The notes: generated by a model from the sequence alone, not told the origin. Positions 3,001 through 63,154 are shown, counted from the first letter of the stretch. The stretch: DNA of 64,000 nt from Candidatus Polarisedimenticolaceae bacterium (GCA_036275915.1 DASUCV010000009.1:223198-287197), one strand, 5' to 3'. Made by a program: numbers and translations.

Positions 3001-4287
3001 GAGGACAGCCACGCGCGCGGCCCCTGGTGGGAGGTCTACGGCGATCCCGAGCTGAGCACGCTCGAGGCCCAGGTCGACGTCTCGAGCCAGACGATCGCGC
3101 AGGCCGAGGCCGAGTACCGGGGGGCGCGCGCGGCGGCGCGCCTCGCGCACGCAGGCCTGTATCCCACGATCTCCACGAACCCCTCGGTGATCCGCTCGAA
3201 GGGCGTTTCCCGGTCGACGCTCACCGCGTCCTCGTCCCCCACCACGTTCTATGAAGTCCCGGTGGACTTCTCGTGGGAGGCGGATCTCTTCGGCCGCCTG
3301 CGGCGGACCGCCGAGGAGGGCGCCGCGCAGGCGCAGGCCTCGGCCGCCGATCTCGAAGGCGTGCGCCTCGCGATGCACGCGGAACTGGCGGTCGATTACT
3401 TCGAGCTGCGCGGGCTCGATGCCGAGGCGAAGCTCTTCGACACGACGGTCGATGCGTACAACGTCGCGCTCGAGCTGACGAAGAACCGCTACGCCCAGGG
3501 CGTCGCTTCCGGCGTCGACGTCGCGCAGGCCGAGACGCAGCTCGAATCGACGCACGCCCAGGCGACCGACCTTCGCCTCCAGCGCACCCAGCTCGAGCAC
3601 GCGATCGCGGTCCTCATGGGGAAACCGCCCTCCGAGTTCTCGCTTCCACCCGGTCAACCGCTCGCCGAGCCCCCCGGCGTTCCCGTCGGACTACCGTCCG
3701 ACCTCCTCGAGCAGCGCCCCGACGTCGCCGCCGCCGAGCGGCGCGCCGCCGCAGCGAACGCCGCGATCGGCGTCGCCCAGGCGGCGTACTTCCCCTCTCT
3801 GACCCTCAGCGCGTCGGGCGGCTTCGCCAGCTCCGCGCTCGGCGACCTCTTCTCGCTTCCGAGCCGCTTCTGGTCGATCGGCGCGGCCGCGCTCGAGACG
3901 ATCTTCGATGGTGGACGCCGACGCGCGGCCAAGAACCAAGCGATCGCCGGCTACGATGCGTCCGTCGCCGCGTATCGCGAGAGCGTGCTCACCGCGCTGC
4001 AGCAGGTCGAGGACAACCTCGCAGCGCTCCGCGACCTCGAGGTGGAAGCCTCCGAGCAGGCGAAGGCGACCGCCGCCGCGGAGCGCGCGCTCTCCCTGGC
4101 GCAGAACCGCTACAAAGCCGGGATCACGTCGTACCTCGAGGTCGTCGTCGCGCAAGCGGTCGCGCTCGGCGACGAGCGGGCGTCGGTCGATCTGTCGGTG
4201 CGGCGCATGGTGGCGAGCGTCAACCTGGTCCAGGCTCTCGGCGGCGGGTGGAACGCGGAGGAGCTTCGCTCAGGACTCCAGAAATAG
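1..4287 (+). CDS. RND (HAE1, MdtB/MdtC-like) efflux permease, 5'-truncated by the window edge, continuing in frame without a stop into a NodT/OprM-type outer-membrane-factor lipoprotein
   Basis: Frame 1 is open from base 1 (GRIAGITE precedes the first ATG at 25), so the 5' end lies outside the window. The sequence is MdtC-like (SSGSGSTQVTLQFDLSRNIDAAARDVQAAINAA..., multi-TM pattern, ...TTPVVYLYLDRF). From about 2839 the same frame encodes a signal peptide plus lipobox (ALLLTAC) and AVGPDYKRP..., the hallmark N-terminus of NodT-family OMFs, ending ...LVQALGGGW. No stop codon lies between the two parts. Confidence 0.85.
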   Translation, partial: GRIAGITEMTSSSGSGSTQVTLQFDLSRNIDAAARDVQAAINAARGQLPANLPGNPSYKKANPADAPIMLLALTSDTVERARMYDVASTILQQKLAELRGVGQVVVGGGALPAVRVELDPAAVYDSGLALEDVRTALAAANANRPKGDVGDDKRLWSVTTSDQLLKAAEYEPLVISAHGSAAVRLADIARVTDSVEDLHATGLANGKPAIILIIFRQPGANIIETVDRIRGVLPQLRASLPHGVELQVMIDATRTIRASVRDVEITLLIAIGLVVLVVFAFLRSARSTFIPSVAVPISLIGTFGVMYLLGYSIDNLSLMALTVATGFVVDDAIVVVENVTRHLEEGRTPLDAALIGAREIGFTVVSISLSLIAVFIPILFMGGIIGRLFREFAVTLSVAIAVSLVVSLTTTPMMCAMLLRPHGTTRQGRLAAAGERAFDFILRVYGRGLDWVLRHQPLTLAVTLLTMAGTAALYVVVPKGFFPQQDTGRMNGSLVADQDASFQATNKKLSALVATVMKDPAIESAAGFIGGSSNTGRVFVGLKPTSERTATPDQVIARLRGKLSGVPGATLYLQAVQDVRVGGRFGAAQYQYTLQGDDPDELSSWAPRVYAKLRSLPMLADVNTDQQNKGLRASLTIDRATASRLGITTQRIDDTLYDAFGQRQVSTMYTQLNQYHVVMQVDEKLWQNPDGLKSIYIPSTDGGLVPLSAIARFGSGTAPLTVNHQGQFPAITISFNLPVGVALGTAITAIKRAESEIGLPSSIRGSFQGTAKEFQASLANEPILILAALLAVYVVLGILYESLIHPVTILSTLPSAGVGALLALLATNTELSVIALIGIILLIGIVKKNAILMIDFAIEAERSQGKSPEEAIRQACLLRFRPITMTTMAALLGGLPLAIGGGTGSELRRPLGIAIVGGLIFSQMLTLFTTPVVYLYLDRFRLAWGRLRGKAVLRPALFAVLALLLTACAVGPDYKRPPAPTPDAYKELPPGAQTLRPARPEDSHARGPWWEVYGDPELSTLEAQVDVSSQTIAQAEAEYRGARAAARLAHAGLYPTISTNPSVIRSKGVSRSTLTASSSPTTFYEVPVDFSWEADLFGRLRRTAEEGAAQAQASAADLEGVRLAMHAELAVDYFELRGLDAEAKLFDTTVDAYNVALELTKNRYAQGVASGVDVAQAETQLESTHAQATDLRLQRTQLEHAIAVLMGKPPSEFSLPPGQPLAEPPGVPVGLPSDLLEQRPDVAAAERRAAAANAAIGVAQAAYFPSLTLSASGGFASSALGDLFSLPSRFWSIGAAALETIFDGGRRRAAKNQAIAGYDASVAAYRESVLTALQQVEDNLAALRDLEVEASEQAKATAAAERALSLAQNRYKAGITSYLEVVVAQAVALGDERASVDLSVRRMVASVNLVQALGGGWNAEELRSGLQK
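2839..2904 (+). other. Internal lipoprotein signal peptide and lipobox at the RND/OMF junction
   Basis: Codons 2839-2904 read L-RGKAVLRPALFAVLALLLTAC: a basic n-region, a hydrophobic core, and the lipobox L-T-A-C with the Cys codon at 2902-2904. The only conceivable in-frame initiators nearby are CTG 2839 and GTG 2878. Confidence 0.7.
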
Positions 4288-11508: not shown

Positions 11509-13983
11509 CTACCCCGGCGCCTTCTTCGCAGCCTCCGCGATGGCGTGGCTGCGCGCCTTCGCGGCCGCCGCGGCGGTCCGATCCCCCGTCGTCTCGTAGA
11601 CCGCGGCGAGCGCGTCCAAGTCCTCGATGAGATCCGGCGAATCCTTCCCCGACGCCTTCTCGTCGATCGCGAGCGTGCGCTCGTACAGATGTTTCGCGGC
11701 CGTCAGGTCGCCCGCGGCGCGGTGCACGTCGCCGAGCGAGAAAAGGACCATCGACACCGCGGGGTTGTCCGGCCCGAACTTCTTCTCGCGGATGGCGAGC
11801 GCGCGCTCGAGCGGCTCCTTGGCGGCGGCGGGGTTGCCGGATTGGATCCGCGCGTAGCCGATGTTGTAGAGCGTCTGCGCGACCCTCGGATGGTCGGGAC
11901 CGTACGCCTTCTCCATCGTGTGCAAGGTCCGCTCGAGCATCGGGAACGCCTTGTCGAACTGCTCGAGCTGCGCGTACGCGAGCGACACGTTGCCGAGCGC
12001 CTCGATCACCTCGCGGCTCTCCGGGTCGAGGAACTTCTCGCGGATGGCGAGCGCGCGCTCGAAATTCGAGAGCGCGCGGTCCAGGTGGCCGGTCCGCTGC
12101 TCGAGGACGCCGCGGTTCGTGAGGAGATCGGCGACATCGAGCGATCCGTCGTCGCCCGCGGCGTGAAGGAGAGCGACCCCTTCGTCGAGGTCCTTCTTCG
12201 CCCCCTCGAGATCGTCGACGTCGGTCTTGACCGAGGCACTGTCGACGAGGAATCGTGCCCTCTCGGCCGGGCTCGCATCGGGGGTCGCGGCAAGGATGGC
12301 CCGTGCGCGTTCGAGCGGCGCCAAGGCGGCCTTGGACTCCTTCATCTCTCCGAGCAGCCAGCCGTAACCGGTCAGCGCGCGCGCCAGCGCGAGGCTCGGA
12401 GCGCCGGCGTCGAGGATCGCGATCGCCTCCTCGTATTCCTTCCGGGACGACGTGTAGTCGCCGAGTCCTTCGAGCGTCTTGGCGAGCAGGACCTTCCCTT
12501 CCGCGACCTCGGTGGCTCCTCCGCCGAGCTGCGCCGTCCGGACCTTGACGCTGTCCTCGATCAGCGGCCGCGCGCGCGCGTAGAGACCGAGCCGCTCGTA
12601 GACGTCGGCGATCGCCGCCATGAGACGCGCCCGTACCAGCGGATCCTGCGCCAGCTCGAGACGGATCCGATCGGCTCCGCGGTCCAAGATCTCGCGCGCG
12701 GTGATCTGCTCGCTTCGTGCGCGGTCGGGCTTGCTGACGTCGAAGAGCCCGACGAGGAAGTCGTAGGTGTGCTTCGCGGTGCCGGCTTCCTCGCGGGCCG
12801 ATTTCTCCGCCGCCAGGGCGCGCGCGAGGTTCCTCTCGGAGCGAATGTAGAGGAACGACATGCCGATCGCCGCGACGACGGTCAGAAGAACGACGACGGC
12901 GGCCGCCGCGAACGCGCCTCGGTGGCGGGCGACGAGCTTGCGGATCTGGTAGATCGTGCTCGGCGGATGCGCGAGGATCGGCTCGCTGGCAAGCCAGCGG
13001 CGCACGTCCTCGCCGAGGGCTGCGACGCTCGCATAGCGCTGCTCGGGGTCCTTCTCGAGCGCCTTACGCACGATCGTCTGGAGATCGGCGTCGGGACGTC
13101 CCGGCCCCGGCCAATCCTTGGCGAGCGGGCGCGGCTCGACCTCGCTGATCGTACGAATGGCGTCGGCGAAGACCGACGGCACGTCGTAGGGCGGCTTGTC
13201 GACGAGCATCTCGTAGAGGATCAGGCCGAGCGCGTAGACGTCGGTGCGCACGTCGACGGCGGCGGGGTTGCCTTTCACCTGCTCCGGGCTCATGTAGGGG
13301 ACGGTGCCGCGGACGACGCCGGCGACGCTCGCGGGCGGCGCGCCCTCCTGATCGGGGTCGGTGAGCCGTGCGAGGCCGAAGTCCAGGACCTTGACGATCG
13401 GTCGCGTCGCATACGAGGTGTCGCTGCCCCGCGAATGTGACGGAGCGGACTCCGGCGGCAGCACGATGAGGTTCGACGGCTTGAGGTCGCGGTGGATCAC
13501 GCCGCGCTGATGTGCGTAGTGGACGGCGTCGCACGCGGCGAGGATGATCTCGAGCCGCTCGCGGAGCGCGGCCATGGTCCGCGGCCTCTCGCCGTGCCGC
13601 GCCGCAAGCCACGCGTGAAGGGTCTCGCCGGGAACCAGCTCCATCGCGAACCAGTGGTGCCCGTCGTCCGTGCGCCCAGACTCGAGGATCGCCGCGATCC
13701 CCGGGTGGACGAGGCGCGCGAGCATATCGGCCTCGCGGCGGAAGAGGCGCACGTGCAGCTCGCTGGCGATCGCGCCGCCCCTCACGACCTTGAGCGCGAC
13801 GCGGCGCCTCGGCGTCTCCTGCTCCGCCTCGAAGACGGTGCCGAATCCTCCCTCGCCGAGCTTTCGCAGCAGGCGGAATCCGGGCACGGCGACGGCCGAG
13901 AGAGGGACGGAGCCCTCGGGAATCGCGACGCCTCCCGTCGTCGCGGTCGGCGGGTCGGCCTTCGGGAATTCGCGGCCGGTCAT
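11509..13983 (-). CDS. Membrane Ser/Thr protein kinase with extracytoplasmic TPR repeats, 824 aa
   Basis: Hanks kinase motifs GEGGFGTVFEA, VALK, HRDLKPSN, DFGLAR and SPEQ. One TM segment (AFAAAAVVVLLTVVAAIGMSFLYI). The C-terminal half has repeated TPR-like units (...ALxxxExALAIxEKxxGPDHP...). Confidence 0.9.
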   Translation of the reverse strand: MTGREFPKADPPTATTGGVAIPEGSVPLSAVAVPGFRLLRKLGEGGFGTVFEAEQETPRRRVALKVVRGGAIASELHVRLFRREADMLARLVHPGIAAILESGRTDDGHHWFAMELVPGETLHAWLAARHGERPRTMAALRERLEIILAACDAVHYAHQRGVIHRDLKPSNLIVLPPESAPSHSRGSDTSYATRPIVKVLDFGLARLTDPDQEGAPPASVAGVVRGTVPYMSPEQVKGNPAAVDVRTDVYALGLILYEMLVDKPPYDVPSVFADAIRTISEVEPRPLAKDWPGPGRPDADLQTIVRKALEKDPEQRYASVAALGEDVRRWLASEPILAHPPSTIYQIRKLVARHRGAFAAAAVVVLLTVVAAIGMSFLYIRSERNLARALAAEKSAREEAGTAKHTYDFLVGLFDVSKPDRARSEQITAREILDRGADRIRLELAQDPLVRARLMAAIADVYERLGLYARARPLIEDSVKVRTAQLGGGATEVAEGKVLLAKTLEGLGDYTSSRKEYEEAIAILDAGAPSLALARALTGYGWLLGEMKESKAALAPLERARAILAATPDASPAERARFLVDSASVKTDVDDLEGAKKDLDEGVALLHAAGDDGSLDVADLLTNRGVLEQRTGHLDRALSNFERALAIREKFLDPESREVIEALGNVSLAYAQLEQFDKAFPMLERTLHTMEKAYGPDHPRVAQTLYNIGYARIQSGNPAAAKEPLERALAIREKKFGPDNPAVSMVLFSLGDVHRAAGDLTAAKHLYERTLAIDEKASGKDSPDLIEDLDALAAVYETTGDRTAAAAAKARSHAIAEAAKKAPG

Positions 13984-16652
13984 GGCTTCGGGAGCTCCTG
14001 CGTCCAGTTCGACACCACGACGATCGGTGCCGCGCCTTCGGAGGCGAGCGTGTTGACCACGAACGTCGCGCCGTCCGCCGCCATGTCGAGCGTGGAGTAA
14101 CCGGGGCGAAGGAGCACGCGGAAGAGCGGCGTCTCGGCACCCGGCTGCATCGACCTGGCCGCGAGCGGGACGCTCACGATCGTCCCGTCGGAACGCCAGT
14201 AGACGAGCTCACGATCGCCGGGGCCCCACTGCGGCAGCACGCCGCCGTGGGGCGAGATCTGGATACGGCTTCCGTCGCCCGTACCCGGCGCAGGCGCGAT
14301 GAAGACCTGAGGCTGACCCCCGCTCACGACGCCGTACGCGATGAAGCGCCCGTCATGCGAGATGCGTGCGAAGCTCAGGTTCTTGGTGCCCGTGTCCAGC
14401 CACTGAATCGATCCCGTGCCGTCCGCGGACGCGACGCCGAGGCGGTCCGCGAGCGTGGTGTTCCAGTTGCCGGAGCCGACGAGGAGCTTGCGGCCGTCCG
14501 CCGACCAGTCGACGGGCCACAGGTCTTCCTTGTCGGCCTTGAGAACCGTGCGCCCCGGCCCTCCGTCCGAGGCCATGACCATGACCGCGTAATCCCCGGG
14601 CTGATGCGTCGTCGCGACGTTCTTCGTGTACGCGATCCACCGGCCGTCGGGTGAGAACAACGGAACGTCCTCGTCCTCGTCACCGGTGGTGAGCCGCCGC
14701 GCGGCGCCCCGCTCGATGTCGTACACGAAGATGTCGCCGCTCGGCGTGAGCTGCGAGGAGTAGGCGATCCGTTTGCCGTCGTGCGAGAGCCGCACGGCGA
14801 AGTGGTTCCCGACCTCCGCGACCTTGCGCAGAAGCTTGCCGCTGCGGTCGCGAATCTGGATCTCGCTTCCCTGCGTCCCTCCGGTGGGCTGGTAGACGAG
14901 GACTCCCTTCTCGGTCACCGACACGTTGGCCTTCCAGGTCGAAGGGTCGAATTGCACGCGATCGGCGGTCGGTCGCGGCTCTCCCGTGAACTCCGCCTTC
15001 CTGGGATCGAACGGCCGCGCGATGAGCACGCTGTCCTGCACGTAGAAGAGGTAGCCGCCCGCGTACTGCGCATCGGTCGCGCACGGGACGAGCGTGCGAT
15101 TCTCTTTGCCGTCGAGCGAAGCGACCCAGACCGAATTCTCCTGGCCACCGACGTCGTCGTGATTGCCGGCGTAGTAGAGCAGGTGCTTCCCGTCGGGAAG
15201 GAAGTGCGGCCACCGGTGCGTGGTTTGCTTCGACGAGGCGAGGGTCGTCGCGGGTTGCGGCGTTCCACCCATCGCGGACACCTGCTGGAGCGCCGTCCGG
15301 TAGTCCGGAGAGAACACGATGACGCCGGAGGCGCTCCACGTTCCCCCGCGTCCGCCCGGCGCGGGACAGATCGCCATGACCTGCCGCGTGTCGATGTCGA
15401 CGCGCTTCAATTTCAGATCCGCGAAGAAGCCGAGCGAGTGCCCGTCCGGCGACCAGAACGGGTAGGTGGCGCTCTCCGTGCCGGGGATCGGCTCGGCCTT
15501 CAGCGAGGCGAGATCGCGCAGCCAGATCGAAGCGCCGCCTCGGTCGTCGACGGCGACGAACGCCACGCGCTTGCCGTCGGGCGAGATCACCGGCGGTCCC
15601 GCGTTGTCGCCCCCAAAGAGGAAGAGCGCGCCCTCGGGCGGCGTGACGATCGTGCGCATGACGCGTGCATCGTCCCCGTGACGGAGCGCGAGCAGCGCGA
15701 ACAGGGCGAGCGCGACGCCGAGCGCGCCGACGATCCAGCCGGTCCAGGCGATTCGCGGTCGCTTCATCGTCGCGACCGGCGCCGCACCGGCGGAGCTGCC
15801 CTCGCCGATCCAACGAAGTTGCAGGCGGACGTCGTGCGCGGTCTGGATCCGCTCGTCGGGATCCTTGACCAGGCACATGCGGATCAGATGGTCGAGCGCG
15901 GGAGGCGTCGTCGGCATCAGCTCCGCCGCCGGCCGCGGCGCGTCGCGCATGATCGCCGAGATCAAGCTCGCCTGCGTGGCGCCCTCGAACGCGCGCTTGC
16001 CGGTCGCCATCTCGTAGAGCACGCAGCCGAACGCCCACAGATCGGCGCGCGCGTCGGACTCGCGCCCCTCGAGCTGCTCCGGCGCCATGTACTGGAACGT
16101 GCCGAGGATCGTCCCCTCCGCCGTGAGCGGCGCCGCCACCGTGGGCGAGCTCGTCATCTCGCCTGGGCGCCCGAGGCCGGTCGCGCGCGCCAGGCCGAAG
16201 TCCATGAGCTTCGCCCCGGACTTTGTGAGCATCACGTTCCCCGGCTTGAGATCGCGATGCGAGACGCCGGCGCGATGCGCCCGGTCGAGCGCGTCCGCGA
16301 TCTGGCCGCCGATCCGCAGCACGTCGGCGAGCGGCAGCGCCCCCTTCGCGAGCCGTTGCGCGAGCGTCTCGCCCTCGATCAGCTCCATGACGAGGTAGTC
16401 GGTGTCGCCCTGGCGCCCGACGTCGTGGAGAGTGCAGACGTTCGGATGGTTCAGCGAGGAGACGGCCTTGGCCTCGCGCTCGAACCGCGCGCGGATCTCT
16501 GGGTTCGACGAGAGGTGCTGCGGCAGCACCTTGATCGCGACCTCGCGGCCGAGCCGCGTGTCCTTCGCGCGATAGACCTCGCCCATCCCTCCCGCGCCGA
16601 GCGGTGATGTGATCTCGTAGGGGCCCAGCTGGGTTCCGGACGCGAGCGGCAC
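13980..16652 (-). CDS. Membrane Ser/Thr protein kinase with C-terminal TolB-like beta-propeller repeats, 890 aa
   Basis: Motifs GAGGMGEVYRA, VAIK, HRDLKPGN, DFGLAR and APEQ. TM segment WIVGALGVALALFALLAL. The C-terminus has repeated WD40-like/TolB units (...FSPDGKRVAF..., WSPDGHSLGF, FLPDGKHLLY, LSHDGKRIAY, FSPDGRWIAY, WSADGRKLL...). A 4-bp overlap joins it to the downstream kinase gene. Confidence 0.9.
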   Translation of the reverse strand: MPLASGTQLGPYEITSPLGAGGMGEVYRAKDTRLGREVAIKVLPQHLSSNPEIRARFEREAKAVSSLNHPNVCTLHDVGRQGDTDYLVMELIEGETLAQRLAKGALPLADVLRIGGQIADALDRAHRAGVSHRDLKPGNVMLTKSGAKLMDFGLARATGLGRPGEMTSSPTVAAPLTAEGTILGTFQYMAPEQLEGRESDARADLWAFGCVLYEMATGKRAFEGATQASLISAIMRDAPRPAAELMPTTPPALDHLIRMCLVKDPDERIQTAHDVRLQLRWIGEGSSAGAAPVATMKRPRIAWTGWIVGALGVALALFALLALRHGDDARVMRTIVTPPEGALFLFGGDNAGPPVISPDGKRVAFVAVDDRGGASIWLRDLASLKAEPIPGTESATYPFWSPDGHSLGFFADLKLKRVDIDTRQVMAICPAPGGRGGTWSASGVIVFSPDYRTALQQVSAMGGTPQPATTLASSKQTTHRWPHFLPDGKHLLYYAGNHDDVGGQENSVWVASLDGKENRTLVPCATDAQYAGGYLFYVQDSVLIARPFDPRKAEFTGEPRPTADRVQFDPSTWKANVSVTEKGVLVYQPTGGTQGSEIQIRDRSGKLLRKVAEVGNHFAVRLSHDGKRIAYSSQLTPSGDIFVYDIERGAARRLTTGDEDEDVPLFSPDGRWIAYTKNVATTHQPGDYAVMVMASDGGPGRTVLKADKEDLWPVDWSADGRKLLVGSGNWNTTLADRLGVASADGTGSIQWLDTGTKNLSFARISHDGRFIAYGVVSGGQPQVFIAPAPGTGDGSRIQISPHGGVLPQWGPGDRELVYWRSDGTIVSVPLAARSMQPGAETPLFRVLLRPGYSTLDMAADGATFVVNTLASEGAAPIVVVSNWTQELPKP

Positions 16653-40435: not shown

Positions 40436-42469
40436 CTACCTCGTCACCGTCGCCCAGAACGGCAGGTACCTCTTCGCGTCCTTCACGCCTTGCTCGGTGA
40501 CGAGAGTCCCCGTCACGTTGAGCTTCGTCAGCTTCGAGACCTGCTTCAGGTGGACGAGGCCGGCGTCGGTCACCTTCGTCCCCGAGACGTTGAGGCCGGC
40601 GAGGCCCGGAAGCCGGCTCACCTGGGCGAGACCGGCGTCGGTGATGCCGTCGTTCGACAGATTGATCGACTCGAGCCGTGACAGACCCGCGAGGTGCACG
40701 AGACCCGCGTCGGTCACCTTGGTGTCCGCGAGGTTGAGGGTCGTGAGGCCCGAGAGCGTCCCGAGGTGGACGAGGCCGTCGTCGGTGATCGCCGTCCCCT
40801 TGAGACCGAGATACTCGAGCGACGTGAGCTCTCCCAGGCGTGCGAGGCCGCCGTCGGTGATCTTGGTCCCCGAGAGGTTCAGGACACGCAGAGCCGGTAG
40901 GGTCTTCATGACCTCGAGCGCTGCGTCGCCGGTCGATGCTCCCATGAGGCCGAGGCCGTGGAGGTTGGGCAAGCCCTCGAGCGCACGGACGTCCTCGTCG
41001 GTCACGGCCGCGTTGCCGAGGCTCAACTCTTCGAGATCGCGAAGCCGGGCCAGCATCGGGATCACCATCGCGAGGTTCGTCGCCTTGTCCAGCCCCACGC
41101 CGACGATGCGCGAACCTTGGCGCTTGACGGTGCCTCCGGCGGCCTCGATCGCCGCCTGCGGCGTACCCGGCGCCGGCGCGCTCGCGCTCTCGGGCTTGCC
41201 TCCCGTCGGCGGAAGCCGGAACTCCACGTAGTCCGAACGGACCGGGCGCACGAGGCGCTCATCGCCGGGATAGGGCTCGTCCCTGAGGTAGTAGCTCACA
41301 CGAACCCGGCGGTCCTCCGGGTAATAGAAGGCGTGCCAGAACGTGCGCATCGGCGGACGGGAGGGATCCGCCGCCTGCGACATCTGCGCATCGACGTTCT
41401 GATGGAAGCCGCGGATCGTCTCGTCGTCGAGCCTTCCGGCGGCCAGCTTTTCCGTGAGGTACGCGTAGCGCTTGCACGTCGACCTCGCCTTCTCCGCCGA
41501 AGGAGGCTTGCCGTCCTCGAGCTGCTTGTGAAGGGTGAAGTTCGTCATGACGAGCGGCTGGCCCGGGTTCTCGACGATGTACTCCTTGTTGTGGACCTCG
41601 GAGTACTCCCACACGAACGCGTTGCCGTTGCGGTCGGCGATCAGGTAGTGCACCGGGACGTACTGGTAGTACTGCTTCGTCGCCTGGAGCGCCTGCTTCG
41701 CTTCGTCGACCGTGGCGCAGGTATCGAGGAGCAAGCGCAACGTCTGGAGCTCGCTCACCCCGACCGCGGGCTCCCGCGTCGGCTCCGTCTTCGCGTGGCT
41801 GAAGATCTCGTCGTCCATCGCCAGCGTGACGGTGAGCCCTTCGGAGTTGATGCCGTCGAGCACCCCGCTCAAGAGATCGTAGGCGACCATCGCGATCGAG
41901 GCGTATCCGCGATCGGGATGCAGCTCGAGGAGGTACGGCCGCGCCGTCGGATGCAGCATGCCGGGCGGAAGGAAGCCGAAGCTGAGCGCGCCGGTCGTGA
42001 AGTCGTAGTCGCGGCTCACGACGCTCTTGCCGTTCGCGGTCGATGCGGGCGGCAGATGCGCGATGGAGCATCCGGCGCGCAGATCGGTGTATCCGAGGCT
42101 CGTGAAGTCCCAGCCGTCGTCGTCGATCGACTTGCCGAACGCCGCGGCGACGCCCCGCATCCGCTCGAGCAGGATGGGATCGTTCCGCTCGAGGAACTTG
42201 CGCATCGCGCGCGCTTGCACGGGATCCTTGGCGGCCGGGAGTCGCACGCCGTAGCGTTCCTTCCCGAGCTCCGCGAGGGCGCGGCCGATCTGCTCGTTCG
42301 TCCCCCGCAGGACGAGGTGGCGCACTTCGAGGGAGTCGCTCGGTCCGCCGGCGATGACACGATCCTCCTCGATCACGCTCCCCGACGTGGCGGGAGACGA
42401 GCAGCCGTGGAGGCCCGCGAGCAGGACGAAACCGAGGCACGGGATCGCTTCCGCGAGGCGGCGAACCAT
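40436..42469 (-). CDS. Lipoprotein combining an Ntn-hydrolase domain (peptidase C45 / acyl-CoA:6-APA acyltransferase-like) with eight C-terminal 24-aa leucine-rich repeats
   Basis: Lipobox LAGLHGC. A Gly-Cys self-processing-type site ...DLRAG|CSIAHL (Cys134), followed by ...RDYDF..., ...GINSEGLTVTL..., ...YLIADRNGNAFVWEY.... The C-terminus has 8 copies of LxxLxLxGTxVTDAGLxHLxxLxx (residues 479-670). Confidence 0.7.
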   Translation of the reverse strand: MVRRLAEAIPCLGFVLLAGLHGCSSPATSGSVIEEDRVIAGGPSDSLEVRHLVLRGTNEQIGRALAELGKERYGVRLPAAKDPVQARAMRKFLERNDPILLERMRGVAAAFGKSIDDDGWDFTSLGYTDLRAGCSIAHLPPASTANGKSVVSRDYDFTTGALSFGFLPPGMLHPTARPYLLELHPDRGYASIAMVAYDLLSGVLDGINSEGLTVTLAMDDEIFSHAKTEPTREPAVGVSELQTLRLLLDTCATVDEAKQALQATKQYYQYVPVHYLIADRNGNAFVWEYSEVHNKEYIVENPGQPLVMTNFTLHKQLEDGKPPSAEKARSTCKRYAYLTEKLAAGRLDDETIRGFHQNVDAQMSQAADPSRPPMRTFWHAFYYPEDRRVRVSYYLRDEPYPGDERLVRPVRSDYVEFRLPPTGGKPESASAPAPGTPQAAIEAAGGTVKRQGSRIVGVGLDKATNLAMVIPMLARLRDLEELSLGNAAVTDEDVRALEGLPNLHGLGLMGASTGDAALEVMKTLPALRVLNLSGTKITDGGLARLGELTSLEYLGLKGTAITDDGLVHLGTLSGLTTLNLADTKVTDAGLVHLAGLSRLESINLSNDGITDAGLAQVSRLPGLAGLNVSGTKVTDAGLVHLKQVSKLTKLNVTGTLVTEQGVKDAKRYLPFWATVTR
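40460..41035 (-). repeat. Eight tandem 72-bp coding repeats (24-aa LRR units)
   Basis: Units: LEELSLGNAAVTDEDVRALEGLPN / LHGLGLMGASTGDAALEVMKTLPA / LRVLNLSGTKITDGGLARLGELTS / LEYLGLKGTAITDDGLVHLGTLSG / LTTLNLADTKVTDAGLVHLAGLSR / LESINLSNDGITDAGLAQVSRLPG / LAGLNVSGTKVTDAGLVHLKQVSK / LTKLNVTGTLVTEQGVKDAKRYLP. Confidence 0.85.
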
Positions 42470-45858: not shown

Positions 45859-46929
45859 ATGCGTTTCTTCTGCGCCGCCGCGCTTGCGCTCTTGATGTTC
45901 TCGTCGTCCTCGGCACAGCTGACGGAGGCGAACGCCGATCGCTTCGCGAAGCTCGCGCTCGCCTGCGTGCAGAAGGAGTATCCGAACAAGATCGCGCACG
46001 TCCTGAACTCGCCGGAGGATGTGAAGGCGCCCCACGAGCTGACGCCGGCCTTCTACGGCTGCTACGACTGGCATTCCTCGGTGCACGGGCACTGGCTGCT
46101 CGCCACGCTGGCGCGTCGCTTCCCGCAGGCGCCCTTCGCGTCCGGCGCGGTCGCCGCGCTCGAGGCGAACATCACCCCCGCGCACGTCGCCACGGAGGTC
46201 GCCTACCTCGATCGTCCGGGCAACGAGACGTTCGAGCGACCTTACGGGCTGGCGTGGCTGCTGCAGCTCGCGTCGGAGCTTCGCGGCTGGAACACGCCGG
46301 CCGGGCAAGCGCTCTCGTCCGCGCTCGCGCCTTTGGAGCGTGCGGTCGTCGGCCGCCTGAGCGCGTGGCTGCCGAAGCTCGCGTACCCGATCCGCGAGGG
46401 CGAGCACGCTCAGACCGCATTCGCGTTCGGCCTGATCCTCGATCACGCGCGCGCGAGCGGCGACAAGACGCTCGAGGCGCTCGTCACCGCCAAGATCAGG
46501 GACTTCTACGTGAAGGATCGGAGCTGCCCGATCGACTACGAGCCGTCGGGGCAGGATTTCTTGTCCCCCTGCCTCGCGGAGGCGGACGTCGTGCGGCGCG
46601 TGCTGCCTCCCGCCGAGTTCGCGAAATGGCTGACGGCGTTCCTCCCACGCATCCCGCAGACAGCGTCCGCCGCCTGGCTCCCGATCGGCGTCGTCACCGA
46701 CAGGAGCGACGGGAAGCTGGCGCACCTCGACGGCTTGAACCTCAGCCGCGCGTGGATGCTACGTGGGATCGCCGCCGGCCTTCCGCCCGCCGATGCGCGG
46801 CGGAGAGCGCTCTTGGCCGCTTCGGAGGTGCACGCGCGGAGCGGCCTCGCCGCGGTGACCGGCGAGCACTACGAAGGCGGACACTGGCTCGGCAGCTTCG
46901 CCACCTATCTCCTCACTTCTTCTCCTTGA
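45859..46929 (+). CDS. DUF2891 family protein (exported)
   Basis: Signal peptide MRFFCAAALALLMFSSSSA. The family-typical stretch is ...LACVQKEYPNKIAHVLNSPEDVKAPHELTPAFYGCYDWHSSVHGHWLL.... Confidence 0.7.
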   Translation: MRFFCAAALALLMFSSSSAQLTEANADRFAKLALACVQKEYPNKIAHVLNSPEDVKAPHELTPAFYGCYDWHSSVHGHWLLATLARRFPQAPFASGAVAALEANITPAHVATEVAYLDRPGNETFERPYGLAWLLQLASELRGWNTPAGQALSSALAPLERAVVGRLSAWLPKLAYPIREGEHAQTAFAFGLILDHARASGDKTLEALVTAKIRDFYVKDRSCPIDYEPSGQDFLSPCLAEADVVRRVLPPAEFAKWLTAFLPRIPQTASAAWLPIGVVTDRSDGKLAHLDGLNLSRAWMLRGIAAGLPPADARRRALLAASEVHARSGLAAVTGEHYEGGHWLGSFATYLLTSSP

Positions 46930-48061
46930 ACGGAGTCCGCCACAGCACGCTGCCGCTGTCGTCGAAGAGCACGAGAGACGCCGACGGACGCCGCAGCTCC
47001 TCGCTCCCTTCCTGATTCTGGAGCGCGATCGAGCCTAGGGACGCGCGCACGACCCCTTCGTCGTTGGAGAGATCGAGGAAGGGAGACTCCCATGACCGCA
47101 GGCCCAGCTTGGCGCGGACCACACCGTCGCTGCCCGCGAGCGCCAGGTAGGGACCCGCGTCGGCCGATGCGGCGAGCTGGGCCGCGAGCCGGCCATCGCG
47201 ATCCGTCAGGGACACGCCGACGCCGCCGTCCCGCGCGACGGTTGCATGGAGGCCGGATTGGCCGCGCTCGCCGGCCAGCTCGAGCGTGGGGACGCCTTCC
47301 GCGGTCGTCTGGATCAACGCGCGCACCTTGCCGGCGGGGTCGAGAAAGCTCAGGGCCGGCTCGCCGGTCGGGAATGCCATCAACATCGAGCGGGGGTGGC
47401 CATTGCCGTCGAAGAGCGCGATCCGCGGTGCGCCACCGGCGCTGGTCAACGACAGCCGCTCGGTCCCATCCGGATCGGTGAAGCCGACGCTGGGCGTGCC
47501 CGCCGTGCTCGTCCGCACGACGAATCGCGTCGCGCCGTCGAGATCGGCGATGTGGAGGCGCGCCGTATCGTCGGGCTGCAACTCGAGCCCGGCGACCGAC
47601 TTCCCCCGACGCGACAGGAGCGCAACGCCGGGGGCGCCGGTCGCGGAGAGGGCGAGATGGGCGCGCGGCGTCCCGGTCGGGTCGGAGAGCACGACCGATG
47701 GAGCGCCGTCGTCGCCCACCTGCAGCGCGGCCCGCACCTTGCCGTCGGCGTCGTTCAAGCTGAGGCGGGGCGAGCCCGTGTCCGTCGTGACCTCGAGCAG
47801 CATGCGCGTCGTGTCGGTCGCATCCCGGAAGGTCAGCTGGGGCCGGCCGTCGAGCGCGAACCCGAGCCGGACGCGCACGCGGCCGTCGGCGTCGAGGAGG
47901 TGGAACGCGCTCGCTTCCGAAACCGGGGCGATCACACGCGGCGCCGCCTGGGCCGCGAGCAGCAGGAGACAGGCGATCGCGAGCGTCGCGTGAACGGTCC
48001 ACCGGAGCCGCCGGTTCTCGCGCTCGAGACGATCCACGCGGTCGATCAACGAGTCGTTCAT
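46913..48061 (-). CDS. Membrane-anchored hypothetical protein made of about 14 tandem 22-aa beta-hairpin-like repeats
   Basis: N-terminus MNDSLIDRVDRLERENRRLR (coiled-coil-like) plus a TM segment (WTVHATLAIACLLLLAAQAA). Repeats of the form h-x-h-x-D-x-x-G-x-x-R-x-x-L-x(5)-G-x-P follow (for example LSLNDADGKVRAALQVGDDGAPS, VGFTDPDGTERLSLTSAGGAPR, LSFLDPAGKVRALIQTTAEGVPT). The repeat region is nt 46931-47905. Confidence 0.7.
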   Translation of the reverse strand: MNDSLIDRVDRLERENRRLRWTVHATLAIACLLLLAAQAAPRVIAPVSEASAFHLLDADGRVRVRLGFALDGRPQLTFRDATDTTRMLLEVTTDTGSPRLSLNDADGKVRAALQVGDDGAPSVVLSDPTGTPRAHLALSATGAPGVALLSRRGKSVAGLELQPDDTARLHIADLDGATRFVVRTSTAGTPSVGFTDPDGTERLSLTSAGGAPRIALFDGNGHPRSMLMAFPTGEPALSFLDPAGKVRALIQTTAEGVPTLELAGERGQSGLHATVARDGGVGVSLTDRDGRLAAQLAASADAGPYLALAGSDGVVRAKLGLRSWESPFLDLSNDEGVVRASLGSIALQNQEGSEELRRPSASLVLFDDSGSVLWRTPFKEKK

Positions 48062-48102
48062 GATGGCCTCCTCCGCGTCATTATCGGATAGGCTGGCGCC
48101 GC

Positions 48103-60319: not shown

Positions 60320-63154
60320 TTACTGTCCCCTTACGACCTTCCGAACCTGATCGAACCAGTTGAGGATCTCCACGACACGGTCGCCCGGATACTGGGCGGC
60401 CACCGGCCTCACGCCGAGGAAGCGCTCGCCGTCGGCGGCGAACCCGTTCAGCTCGACGAAGTCCGAGGGGATCTTCACGAGATCCCTCGGTAGGCCGGCC
60501 GAGATCCCGCTCGCGGTCGCCGAGAGCGGGACGGACATGAGCCAACGATCCGGTCCTTCTTCGCGCACGTACACCAGCTCGTTCCCGCGAGGAGACCAAT
60601 GGGGCAGGGTGCCTCCGCCGCGCGAGACCTGCCACGTTCCGTTCCCCGTCGGCAGCGGCCGGATGTAGACCTCCCAGTGCCCACCGACGTTCGTCTGATA
60701 GGCGAGCCAACGGCCGTCGGGAGAAACGGCAGGGCTCGCGGGATTGGTCTCTCCGAATCCCGTGAGGCGCCGCGAGTCTCCGCCTTCCGTGCGTGTGAGG
60801 TAGATGGCATCCGGTGCCAAGTGGACGACTCCCGGCCCCTCCTCCGTGCGAACGACGAGTCTCGCGAATTCGCCGTCGACGTCGATCGGAAGACGCCGGG
60901 GCGCGCCGGTCCCATCGGCGTCGGCCGCATACAGGTGCAGGGTGGCGCCCCCTTCCGCGTCGGAGGAAACGAGCAGCTGGCGCCCATCGGGAAACCAGGA
61001 CCGGAGCGCGATATTTCCCGCGGACCTGGCACGGGTCGTCGATCGCCGGTCCAGGTCGTAGACGGCGACCGTGTCGGTGGCGCCGAACACCGTCGAAGCG
61101 ATCCGCGTCCCGTCGGGTGACAGGATCGGCCGGTAGTAGGGCTCCAGCGGAGCCCCCACGGACGTGACGTTCCCCCGCCGGTCGAGCCAGACGAGCTCGT
61201 TGCGCGCGATGTCCTCGCCTCCTGGGACGAAGACGATCGCCCCCGCATCGGAAGCGACGGCGAACTGCGCGGCGCCGCTGCCCGGCGACGTCATCACGTT
61301 CGACAGGATGCGGACCGGTGGCCCGGTGACTTTCTCAGACCGGAGGTCGAAGGGCACCGCCACGATGGCGCCGTCCCGCGCGTAGACGATGTGGCCGGTC
61401 GGGAGGTACCTGGCGAACGACCCGCCGCGAATGAGCGTCTTCCAGGACTTCGTGTCGAGGTCGAGCAGGGCGATCTCGCCTTCGTCGAACGACGTGATCC
61501 CTTCCTTCTTGATCGTGAAGAGCAGGTGGCGGCCGTCGGGAAGCGCGGACGGCCAGCGGTGGGACACCTCTCCCTTGGAGGTGTCGGGAACGGTGAGCGT
61601 CAGGGCCGCGCCACCGTTCTCTCCCACCATCATCAAGCCGGCTTTCGCCGCCGGAGAGAAGACGATCCCCCGTTGCGTCCAGGCGGCCCCCTTCATCCCA
61701 CCCACGCTGAGGTTCTCGGTGATGAGGGTCGGCGAAGCGCCGTCGAGACTGACCTTGTAGAGGCCGCGCCCGGAGAAACCGAGCCACTTGCCGTCCGGAG
61801 AGAAGAACGGGTCGAAGGCGGCGTTCGCCGCATCGGGTGAGGCCACACACCGGGTGGCGATCTCGTCGGCCCGGCGCACGCAGATCGACCAATCGATCCC
61901 GTTCGTCCGTGGCGTCTTTCCGAAGTAGGCGATCGTCATCCCGTCGGCCGTGACGGCCACGCTCGAGTGGTCCGAGGCGCGAAAGCCCGGGTGAGCCGGA
62001 TCGGTGACGTCGACCCTGAGCGGGATCACGGGCGCGTTGCCGGCGTGGATGTCCGGACCGGAGCGCGGGGCCCTCATCGCGATCGCCGCCGACACGACGG
62101 CGGCGACGACCGCGAGACCGGCGATGCTCCACGGGAAGATGTCGCGGCGGCGGCGTGGAACCGATTTCGTCGCGGCTACGGCGCCGGAAGAGGTCCACTC
62201 ACGCCCCTCGCGGACGCGCTCGAGCTCGATTCGCAGGTCGCCGGCATCGCGGAGACGGCGCGTCGGGTCTTTCTCCAGGCATCGCTCGATCAGCTCGCGC
62301 AGACGCGCCGGCGTGCGAGACGGAAGGGCCTCCCAGCTCGGATCCCACTCGATGATCCTGACGAGCACGTCCGTCGCGGTATCGCCCTCGAACGCGCGCT
62401 TCCCGGCGAGGCATTCGTAGAGCACGCAGCCGAGCGACCAGATGTCCGTGCGCCGGTCGACCGGGCGGCCGCGCGCCTGCTCGGGACTCATGTACGGAAC
62501 GGTCCCGATCACCATCCCGGGCTTCGTGAACTGCAGGCTCGCCGTCCGCGACAGACCGAGATCCTCGGCGGCCGGCTCTTCATCGAGCGCCTTCGCCAGA
62601 CCGAAATCGAGGATCTTCACCTTTCCGTCCGGCGTGATCATGACGTTCGAGGGCTTGAGATCCCGGTGCACGATCCCGCTCTCGTGCGCGGATTCGAGGC
62701 CGTCGGCGACCTGGGCGAACACCGACAACGCTTCGTCGATCCGCATGGGACCAGATTTCAGCCGATCGGCCAGCGAGTGCCCCTCGACGAGCTCCATGAC
62801 GAGGAAGTGCGTGTCGTCGTCGAGCTCCTCGAAGCCGTAGACGGCGGCGATGTTCGTGTGGTTGAGCGAGGCGGCGACACGCGCCTCGCGCCGGAACCGC
62901 GCGTTGCGCTCCGGGTCGTTCGCGACCCTCGCCGGCAGCACCTTGATCGCCACCTCTCGATCGAGACGGTCGTCGTGCGCTCGATAAACCTCTCCCATCC
63001 CGCCGCGTCCCAGACGCGAGACGATCCGGTAAGACCCGAGCTGATCGGGAGCCGACGCTTCGAGGCCGAGCCCGAAGAGACATTTGGGGCAGGGCTGGCC
63101 GGCGGGCCGCTCGGTGCCGCACTTCGCGCAACGGACGATCGGCTCGCTCGACAC
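60320..63154 (-). CDS. Membrane Ser/Thr protein kinase with an N-terminal Cys4 zinc-ribbon-like motif and C-terminal TolB-like beta-propellers, 944 aa
   Basis: The N-terminus is MSSEPIVRCAKCGTERPAGQPCPKC. Kinase motifs are GRGGMGEVYRA, VAIK, HRDLKPSN, DFGLAK and SPEQ. TM segment WSIAGLAVVAAVVSAAIAM. Propeller repeats are FSPDGKWLGF, LPDGRHLLF, LSPDGTRIAS, WFPDGRQLLV and VSPDGRWLAY. Confidence 0.9.
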   Translation of the reverse strand: MSSEPIVRCAKCGTERPAGQPCPKCLFGLGLEASAPDQLGSYRIVSRLGRGGMGEVYRAHDDRLDREVAIKVLPARVANDPERNARFRREARVAASLNHTNIAAVYGFEELDDDTHFLVMELVEGHSLADRLKSGPMRIDEALSVFAQVADGLESAHESGIVHRDLKPSNVMITPDGKVKILDFGLAKALDEEPAAEDLGLSRTASLQFTKPGMVIGTVPYMSPEQARGRPVDRRTDIWSLGCVLYECLAGKRAFEGDTATDVLVRIIEWDPSWEALPSRTPARLRELIERCLEKDPTRRLRDAGDLRIELERVREGREWTSSGAVAATKSVPRRRRDIFPWSIAGLAVVAAVVSAAIAMRAPRSGPDIHAGNAPVIPLRVDVTDPAHPGFRASDHSSVAVTADGMTIAYFGKTPRTNGIDWSICVRRADEIATRCVASPDAANAAFDPFFSPDGKWLGFSGRGLYKVSLDGASPTLITENLSVGGMKGAAWTQRGIVFSPAAKAGLMMVGENGGAALTLTVPDTSKGEVSHRWPSALPDGRHLLFTIKKEGITSFDEGEIALLDLDTKSWKTLIRGGSFARYLPTGHIVYARDGAIVAVPFDLRSEKVTGPPVRILSNVMTSPGSGAAQFAVASDAGAIVFVPGGEDIARNELVWLDRRGNVTSVGAPLEPYYRPILSPDGTRIASTVFGATDTVAVYDLDRRSTTRARSAGNIALRSWFPDGRQLLVSSDAEGGATLHLYAADADGTGAPRRLPIDVDGEFARLVVRTEEGPGVVHLAPDAIYLTRTEGGDSRRLTGFGETNPASPAVSPDGRWLAYQTNVGGHWEVYIRPLPTGNGTWQVSRGGGTLPHWSPRGNELVYVREEGPDRWLMSVPLSATASGISAGLPRDLVKIPSDFVELNGFAADGERFLGVRPVAAQYPGDRVVEILNWFDQVRKVVRGQ

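Follow-up and report, generated by a model that had tools for sequence, protein, structure and literature searches.

What does a bacterial protein do that is built almost entirely from one short repeat behind a single membrane anchor, and what shape does such a chain take? The question is raised by a minus-strand gene at positions 46913..48061 of a 64,000-nucleotide stretch of Candidatus Polarisedimenticolaceae bacterium (GCA_036275915.1, DASUCV010000009.1:223198-287197), which we call the window and whose positions are counted from its first letter. An earlier description made from the nucleotide sequence without database searches, the sequence-only reading, saw in this gene an uncharacterised membrane-anchored protein of tandem beta-hairpins facing the periplasm. 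That description proved largely right apart from its fold analogy; the zipper signature, the conserved C-terminal cap and the size of the family were not part of it. We find that the gene is genuine, that its repeat is 23 residues long, and that it belongs to a very large bacterial family without a curated description. The repeats are predicted to form a long one-layer beta-ribbon with a MORN- or OspA-like architecture. At a probability of roughly 45%, we favor a reading in which two such ribbons, zipped together and anchored in the cytoplasmic membrane with the N-terminus inside and the C-terminus outside, serve as a periplasmic stalk or platform: a scaffold, spacer or tether.

The locus encodes a genuine protein with a 23-residue repeat

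GC content at the three codon positions of the 46913..48061 frame is 0.73/0.54/0.89, a strong ribosome-binding site lies 5 nt before its ATG, and gene calling in a public assembly (Logan SRR25158177) independently yielded the exact 382-residue product. An ortholog on metagenome contig Ga0068859 is 64% identical, of equal length and with an equal repeat count. An aligned comparison of the two genes gives a ratio of nonsynonymous to synonymous substitution rates (dN/dS) of about 0.40, and identity differs by position class: 89% at repeat positions D5, G8, R11 and G20, 72% at the hydrophobic positions and 54% at all others. The open reading frame (ORF) thus stands as first described, and the N-terminal DRVDRLERENRRLR, the C-terminal ...LVLFDDSGSVLWRTPFKEKK and all four repeat units quoted as examples are found in it verbatim. 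The sequence-only reading had also considered that another strand or frame might be the expressed one, and long ORFs do overlap the gene on both strands (46905..48002 on the minus strand, 47246..48091 and 47286..47993 on the plus strand). Their products are rich in Arg, Pro and Ala, as expected of shadow ORFs at about 70% GC. The codon-position GC pattern, thousands of protein-level homologs and selection on the motif positions are seen only in the reported frame, and we regard the chance that it is not the true one as negligible.

Self-similarity of the ectodomain (BLOSUM62, 300 shuffles) peaks at an offset of 23 residues (z = 9.9), with harmonics at 46 and 69, so the period is 23 residues and not the 22 proposed before. 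Individual units keep to this length except for one of 24 and one of 22 residues. The run of about 14 consecutive units resolves into 12 full units, which span residues 53-328, followed by a unit that carries a 10-residue insertion and by a final half unit. The consensus reads L-x-L-x-D-x-x-G-K-x-R-A-x-L-x-V-x-x-D-G-x-P-x. Among the 14 units of the window protein, positions 1 and 3 are hydrophobic in 14/14, and D5, G8 and R11 are present in 10/14, 13/14 and 10/14, respectively. A family logo built from 1,049 repeats shows the same pattern, with L1 at 69%, L3 at 73%, D5 at 86%, G8 at 82%, K9 at 47%, R11 at 92%, A12 at 71%, L14 at 87%, Leu or Val at position 16, D19 at 48%, G20 at 62% and P22 at 40%. 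Positions 1, 3, 12, 14 and 16 of each repeat are hydrophobic in 84-100% of cases, and successive family repeats are most often spaced 23 residues apart (377 cases), followed by 22 (152 cases).

The self-similarity profile also contains a half-period, at offsets 11, 34 and 57 (z = 4.8-5.7). Given this spacing of 11-12 residues, each hairpin resembles two similar half units, each a strand followed by a D-G turn, which suggests that the repeat arose from an 11/12-residue element.

The family is very large and has no curated model

An exhaustive profile search recovered 22,457 cluster representatives (clustered at 50% identity) at E<=1e-3, a tier that may contain unrelated repeat or membrane-helix matches, as well as 11,722 representatives at E<=1e-10 and 1,378 at E<=1e-30. 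Most belong to uncultured bacteria of soil and groundwater, spread over many phyla. Word-indexed searches returned 12 and then 38 relatives, none of them named, and a scan of a genome collection with the single window protein as query gave no matches. In a pattern-limited scan of species-representative genomes we found 67 loci, all in metagenome-assembled genomes (MAGs) and mostly in Methylomirabilota/Rokubacteria, with others in Planctomycetota, Acidobacteriota, Chloroflexota, Verrucomicrobiota, Omnitrophota, Armatimonadota and Dormibacterota. Several of these MAGs carry more than one family copy; within the window, the gene has no paralog. Among plasmids, family members occur only on three replicons of Ca. 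Manganitrophus (Nitrospirota), where they are annotated "hypothetical protein", and no phage match was found that would point to a phage origin. The ectodomain comprises 6-20 hairpins in 150 full-length members, which places the window protein, with about 14, at the long end.

No model in Pfam, NCBIfam, PADLOC or PHROGs rose above noise for the window protein or for up to 10 relatives. This bears out the statement that the protein fits no named family, and no profile assigned it to a well-characterised repeat family. Full-text literature searches with the family motifs and for single-layer-sheet repeat families likewise found no description of this family.

One member (L012 8001-8822) was met in a MAG that bears the archaeal label Nitrosotalea sp., on the 286-kb contig DATIWG010000035.1. 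All other matches are bacterial, so that this one reflects either contamination during binning or a copy of a kind rare in archaea. Some relatives depart from the common plan. In P0059 (437 residues) hairpin repeats flank the zipper and membrane helix on both sides, and P0051 consists of 574 residues of repeats without the N-terminal helix; fusion of genes, incomplete gene calls or true variation could each account for them.

The repeats are predicted to form an open single-layer sheet

AlphaFold2 models of the window protein and of the homolog P0001 both consist of a helix followed by a continuous, regular hairpin meander. The window model, based on a 40-sequence alignment and numbered as residue number minus 1, has a mean predicted local distance difference test (pLDDT) score of 78.5 and a predicted template-modeling (pTM) score of 0.59, and shows a long N-terminal helix and then about 30 short strands. 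The P0001 model (pLDDT 92, pTM 0.71) is strictly regular, repeating a 6-residue strand, a 5-residue turn, a 7-residue strand and a 5-residue connector. In Foldseek searches against the PDB, engineered OspA single-layer sheets lead by E-value for both models. For the shorter P0001 model their template-modeling (TM) scores are 0.4-0.5, and the best global fit of this model is to MORN1 (6T4D/6T4R/6T69; TM 0.62-0.65, root-mean-square deviation (rmsd) about 5.6 Å over about 217 columns). The structure prediction and Foldseek comparison that the sequence-only reading had suggested therefore lead to an open hairpin sheet nearest to MORN1 and engineered OspA, and away from the beta-solenoid or spiral that it had envisaged.

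The sequence-only reading had also noted a likeness to YD/Rhs-type repeats (PF05593, TIGR01643), on which model the hairpins would spiral into a closed or solenoidal container. YD/Rhs repeats likewise form long antiparallel strips of hairpins with a period of about 20-23 residues. Foldseek indeed matches our models to Rhs, teneurin and Tc-toxin shells at E of about 1e-8 to 1e-5. The query-normalised TM scores of these matches are only 0.11-0.21 and their rmsd 14-28 Å, so the similarity is confined to local hairpins. Neither an RHS_repeat nor a YD hidden Markov model (HMM) matched at E<=10, and the window protein has no YD dipeptide, shell, plug or Rhs core. Position 4 is Tyr in 18% of family repeats, never with the conserved D-x-x-G-R-L context after it. 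About 28 strands are far too few for a shell, and the ectodomain, which has about 340 residues and holds no further domain, would need to be ten times larger to enclose a cavity. Since the repeat number varies from 6 to 20 in the family, an open structure is favored over a closed one. Overall, we consider a YD/Rhs-type shell or closed solenoid essentially refuted and highly improbable.

The same strand count would give seven blades of a beta-propeller of the PQQ, PD40 or TolB kind, at two hairpins per blade. A weak phmmer match to TolB (E = 0.088) points in this direction, and the terminal motif h-h-h-h-D-x-x-G-K-h-h-W, where h is hydrophobic, resembles PQQ-type blade motifs. Neither PQQ nor PD40 nor WD40 models match, the AlphaFold2 models stay open, and the top Foldseek matches include no propeller. 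Hairpin counts in relatives are variable and odd, which is incompatible with a fixed blade number, and we judge a closed propeller extremely improbable.

The nearest natural architecture is that of MORN repeats (PF02493), which we compared through the MORN1 structures of T. brucei, T. gondii and P. falciparum (PDB 6T4R/6T6Q/6T4D). Each MORN repeat is a hairpin of 23 residues (6+5+6+6), and arrays of them build an elongated twisted sheet with a longitudinal groove (PMC7725318). Our models have the same period and a closely similar plan, with two strands of about 6 residues per hairpin, a 5-residue turn and a 5-6-residue connector in an elongated, twisted antiparallel sheet. Nine MORN repeats measure about 80 Å (PMC7725318); scaled accordingly, the 13.5 hairpins of the window protein would form a rod of about 12 nm, and family members would range from about 5 to 18 nm. 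The sequences, in contrast, differ. The family repeat lacks the YxGxW and GxG glycines and aromatics of the MORN consensus, YxGEWx2Gx3GxGx3Yx2Gx2 (PMC7725318), and carries L-x-L-x-D-x-x-G-K-x-R-A-x-L instead. Pfam MORN does not match the window protein at E<=10 or any of 10 relatives at E<=1, MORN1 is absent from a family-profile search of the PDB at E<=10, and hhalign of family alignment A4 against MORN1 gives a probability of 0.05% (E = 0.85). Characterised MORN proteins are, moreover, cytosolic and eukaryotic, whereas the present array is bacterial, probably extracytoplasmic and joined to an N-terminal zipper anchor.

Derivatives of OspA known as peptide self-assembly mimics (PSAMs; 3EEX, 3CKA, 5Z1O, 2FKJ) share with the family a 23-residue hairpin, an x-x-G turn, an A-D-G/K turn and a continuous single layer. 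The only sequence-level match of the family profile in the PDB is 3EEX (unit STFELFNEKGELSFKLITRADKS), which aligns unit for unit at E = 4.7e-6, a value inflated, as for repeat arrays generally, by summing over copies. Wild-type OspA is not matched, and since only the artificial multi-copy array is, the match probably reflects convergence and summed repeat scores. OspA itself (Pfam Lipoprotein_1, no Pfam match here) is a lipoprotein whose sheet is capped by a globular domain at either end, while the window protein has neither globular domains nor a lipobox, and its ectodomain consists entirely of 13 natural repeats. PSAM designs with hydrophobic cross-strand ladders form soluble face-to-face dimers through a cross-beta interface (PMC9523718), and judging from its repeat sequence, 3EEX appears to be such a hydrophobic-ladder variant. 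On sequence criteria, we do not place the family within MORN, OspA or YD/Rhs, despite the predicted likeness of architecture.

A zipper-like N-terminus leads into the membrane helix

The N-terminal region had been described as a short charged helix with one membrane segment, and a single hydrophobic segment at residues ~21-40 is indeed present. Such a segment occurs in 185/206 inspected family members. In the window protein, the residues before it place L5, V9, L12, N16 and L19 at heptad positions a and d (4-3-4-3 spacing), with Asn16 at "a". When 118 relatives are aligned on this Asn, columns -11, -7, -4 and +3 are hydrophobic in 99-100%, and column 0 is Asn in 75% and His in 25%. Charge pairs between g and e' positions recur across the family, R(-8) with E(-3) and E or Q(-1) with K or R(+4), and small residues at +7 and +21 prolong the "a" register into the hydrophobic helix. 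The family N-terminus thus combines the features of a parallel dimeric leucine zipper: hydrophobic a and d positions, Asn at "a" and g-e' charges. In leucine zippers such as that of GCN4, Asn at an "a" position favors parallel dimers. AlphaFold2 models the zipper segment and hydrophobic helix as one unbroken helix, and together they most likely hold two chains in parallel.

Across the family, Lys and Arg average 4.0 in the 15-residue stretch that precedes the helix and 1.9 in the stretch of equal length that follows. By the positive-inside rule, this excess is consistent with an N-in/C-out topology and extracytoplasmic repeats. A gene for a TolC-type outer-membrane factor in the window marks the host as a diderm, and the claim of N-terminally anchored repeats that face the periplasm gains support from both observations. 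We examined the N-terminus for export signals of other kinds. A twin-arginine translocation (Tat) signal peptide was rejected because the arginines vary (the second is Arg in only 73% and Trp in 14%) and the residue two positions beyond them is charged (Lys or Arg in 95%), and the window protein has no lipobox. Behind the helix, the linker carries a family motif VEAxxF, which reads SEASAF with F53 in the window protein; in alignment A1 the Ala and Phe directly before the first repeat are nearly invariant.

We read the hydrophobic helix as a signal-anchor; a cleavable signal ending AQA↓AP, where the arrow marks the putative cut, seems less likely. Cleavage at this place would release the ribbon, which could then polymerise edge to edge or face to face into a matrix, surface layer or amyloid-like material. 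In about 75% of members, the helix is followed by a conserved G/A-Q-A that looks like a signal peptidase I site. Across the family, Gly or Ala occupies -3 in 90% and Ala, Ser or Gly occupies -1 in about 74%, Pro is frequent at +2, and the hydrophobic core measures only about 16 residues. The closest folds, MORN1 and the CPAP G-box, assemble through their terminal repeats into tail-to-tail dimers and larger complexes (PMC7725318), and a polymer-forming protein would also suit the several paralogs per genome with variable repeat number. About one quarter of members, however, have Thr, Val or Met at -1, which signal peptidase I disfavors. The strong conservation of the n-region and the extension of the heptads into the helix would be hard to explain in a discarded peptide, zipper-less subfamilies retain the N-terminal hydrophobic anchor, and no linked secretion or assembly genes were found. 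We therefore hold a released, self-assembling ribbon to be unlikely, though it is the most probable of the alternatives.

A conserved cap closes the array

The array ends in a C-terminal cap. It consists of a hairpin with the 10-residue insertion (RASLGSIALQNQEGSEELRRPSAS), a terminal hairpin LVLFDDSGSVLWRTP and a 5-residue tail, FKEKK, before the stop codon. The family consensus for this cap is RAVLG.T.LE...TG....RP.SSLVLFDKDGKVIW.AP; the window protein reads ...RASLGSIALQNQEGSEELRRPSASLVLFDDSGSVLWRTP, then FKEKK, with the cap motif LVLFDxxGxVLWxxP. A [W/F/Y]xxP motif is present in 170/206 members, and the chain ends exactly at its Pro in 64% of those 170. The cap is more conserved than the internal repeats, and conservation within the ectodomain is highest at the two free edges of the predicted sheet, the first strand and the C-terminal cap ending in W-x-x-P; the heptads of the zipper are the other most strongly conserved part of the protein. 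The coordinates of all parts of the gene are collected in Table 1.

Table 1. Features of the repeat-protein gene in window coordinates
Feature	Position	Strand	Details and basis
Complete coding sequence	46913..48061	-	ATG start, 382 residues plus stop codon; ORF list, GC at third codon positions 0.89
Shine-Dalgarno-like GGAGGAGG	48067..48074	-	5 nt before ATG; direct reading of upstream sequence
Putative cytoplasmic leucine-zipper-like segment LIDRVDRLERENRRLR	48002..48049	-	residues 5-20; family column statistics, AlphaFold2 helix
Hydrophobic helix WTVHATLAIACLLLLAAQAA	47942..48001	-	residues 21-40; Kyte-Doolittle scan, sole hydrophobic segment
Linker PRVIAPVSEASA into first strand	47906..47941	-	residues 41-52; family alignment A1
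Twelve consecutive beta-hairpin repeats	47078..47905	-	residues 53-328; repeat HMM, periodicity, family logo, AlphaFold2 strands
C-terminal cap	46913..47077	-	residues 329-382; family consensus

The gene stands alone in its genomic context

In the window, the gene stands by itself: a convergent DUF2891 gene overlaps its 3' end by 17 nt (46913-46929), and a divergent gene for a pyridoxal phosphate (PLP)-dependent enzyme lies 41 bp from its start (48062-48102). Between positions 46500 and 48500 we detected no sigma-70-like promoter and no intrinsic terminator, and the whole window contains no Rfam family and no tRNA. The sequence-only reading had proposed a survey of gene neighborhoods across the family, and no neighbor proved to be conserved across phyla, either on three inspected metagenome contigs or among the 67 genome loci clustered by neighbor. 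At the 46 loci where the family gene was called cleanly, synteny is found only among close Methylomirabilota relatives, in at least four paralog contexts with unrelated metabolic genes. As synteny is limited to close relatives, the context yields no functional lead beyond the indication that the gene works alone.

A 264-residue Ca. Manganitrophus member (L075 5860-6654; L076), with a plain N-terminal helix, no zipper and an atypical C-terminus, is encoded immediately behind a metal-efflux operon (TolC / adaptor / FixH / CusA-CzcA), beside ArsR and mer genes. The arrangement is identical in both inspected replicons (CP114554, CP114558); the third replicon with a member is CP114563.

A place directly behind a CusA/TolC efflux operon, as in this one member, would suit a carrier or bridge, in which hairpins curved like those of MORN arrays would leave one or two longitudinal grooves, lined by the conserved Leu, Ala, Leu and Val, that bind an amphipathic helix of a partner or shuttle lipid-like molecules outward from the inner membrane in the manner of LptC/LptA or AsmA-type bridges. 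An N-terminal inner-membrane anchor followed by an elongated beta-domain resembles LptC in outline, and each repeat offers five conserved hydrophobic positions. The groove of MORN1 is 16 Å deep and lined by conserved residues, and MORN4 binds a partner helix there (PMC7725318). Against such a role, Lpt, AsmA and TamB structures are absent from the 50 best Foldseek matches listed for either model, the strands, at 6-7 residues, are short for a taco that encloses lipid, no cross-phylum linkage to envelope-biogenesis genes was seen, and the efflux-operon context is confined to one lineage. A hydrophobic-groove carrier thus appears improbable.

Several other genes of the window deserve mention. A single unbroken plus-strand frame at 25-4287 holds an AcrB-type resistance-nodulation-division (RND) pump (Pfam ACR_tran, truncated by the window start) and, about 300 residues past the pump domain, the TolC-type outer-membrane factor (Pfam OEP), with the junction near 2800-2900. 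The pump C-terminus ...DRFRLAWGRLRGK continues, uninterrupted by a stop codon, into a lipoprotein signal, AVLRPALFAVLALLLTAC↓AVGPDYKRPP. A fused polyprotein of pump and outer-membrane factor could account for this frame, as could an error in the sequence or the loss of a stop codon together with an internal start. The minus strand encodes three large Ser/Thr protein kinases at 11509-13983, 13980-16652 and 60320-63154, whose tails are of the TPR or PD40 (TolB-like propeller) kind; the first two genes are adjacent with a 4-nt overlap. Finally, a 677-residue minus-strand product (40436-42469) joins an N-terminal nucleophile (Ntn) hydrolase domain of the acyl-CoA:6-aminopenicillanic acid (6-APA) acyltransferase / choloylglycine-hydrolase type to C-terminal leucine-rich repeats, a pairing unusual for a bacterium.

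Discussion

The reading we favor combines the zipper, the anchor, the ribbon and the cap into one structure. A zipper of 2.5 heptads, with Asn16 at "a" and g/e' charges, would run unbroken into the membrane helix and pair two chains in parallel. Outside the cytoplasmic membrane, the 12 full hairpins, the insertion unit and the half hairpin would form one twisted, antiparallel sheet a single residue thick: an open rod of about 12 nm, whose length in relatives would scale with the number of hairpins (6-20). Because the sheet is single-layered, the hydrophobic positions 1, 3, 12, 14 and 16 need cover, which could come from pairing of the two ribbons or from a partner. A rigid, membrane-anchored stalk of this kind would offer its distal cap and sheet faces for protein-protein contacts in the periplasm, and its role would be structural, as a scaffold, spacer or tether, not that of an enzyme or transporter. 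The architectural part of this reading is much firmer than the functional part.

Several observations weigh against it. The soluble zipper spans only about 2.5 heptads, short for an autonomous coiled coil, and the helix itself is short (about 16-19 residues) and followed by AQA↓AP or, in the family, G/A-Q-A, so that signal peptidase may cleave there. The AlphaFold2 alignments are shallow (38-40 sequences), and for sequences made of hairpin repeats a meander tends to be the default prediction. Two equal 5-residue loops, as read from the DSSP strings, together with an odd period would make the faces of the sheet alternate. Pooled-repeat charge correlation and mutual information (590 two-repeat windows) are weak and ambiguous, although the weakly covarying pairs 16-22, 15-23, 2-10 and 5-11 are compatible with two parity-preserving turns. 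The inflated score of the 3EEX match belongs with these reservations, as does the genomic context: none of four tested window neighbors is common to the 64%-identical ortholog, and none is conserved across phyla.

As functional analogs of a zipped stalk, TonB and TolA share the outline of an N-terminal anchor, a rigid elongated middle of variable length and a conserved C-terminal end that could dock by beta-strand addition. The analogy implies no homology: the rods of TonB and TolA are Pro-rich or alpha-helical, energised and encoded in operons with ExbBD or TolQR, and no linkage of the ExbBD/TolQR type was seen at the family loci examined. Junctophilin offers a second parallel, as it joins a MORN array to a single membrane anchor.

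A more specific and more speculative version, which we think rather unlikely as it stands, makes the protein an envelope "ruler" or tether. The zipped chains would pair their ribbons via the hydrophobic positions into a finite, water-soluble cross-beta rod that spans much of the periplasm, maybe with a hydrophobic channel. The C-terminal edge strand would dock on peptidoglycan or on an outer-membrane component, and repeat number (about 5-18 nm) would set the reach. Such a protein would be an independent bacterial counterpart of junctophilin-type MORN tethers.

The single-layer architecture of 23-residue hairpins is known from earlier work; the repeat consensus, the bacterial and probably extracytoplasmic location, and the combination of zipper-anchor and cap are new. 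Nature offers few long single-layer beta-sheets, and most work on them has dealt with OspA, MORN proteins and designed mimics. The family described here would supply tens of thousands of natural examples, built from a very regular 23-residue unit and placed in the bacterial envelope behind a zipper-anchor. Its 22,457 representatives without a Pfam or NCBIfam model are a sizeable gap in database coverage of soil and groundwater phyla, among them Methylomirabilota, Planctomycetota, Acidobacteriota and Nitrospirota. Should the ribbons pair or reach across the periplasm, they would constitute a new element of envelope architecture and a natural model for soluble cross-beta assemblies; if they do not, the family is still a definable new domain family that deserves a database entry.

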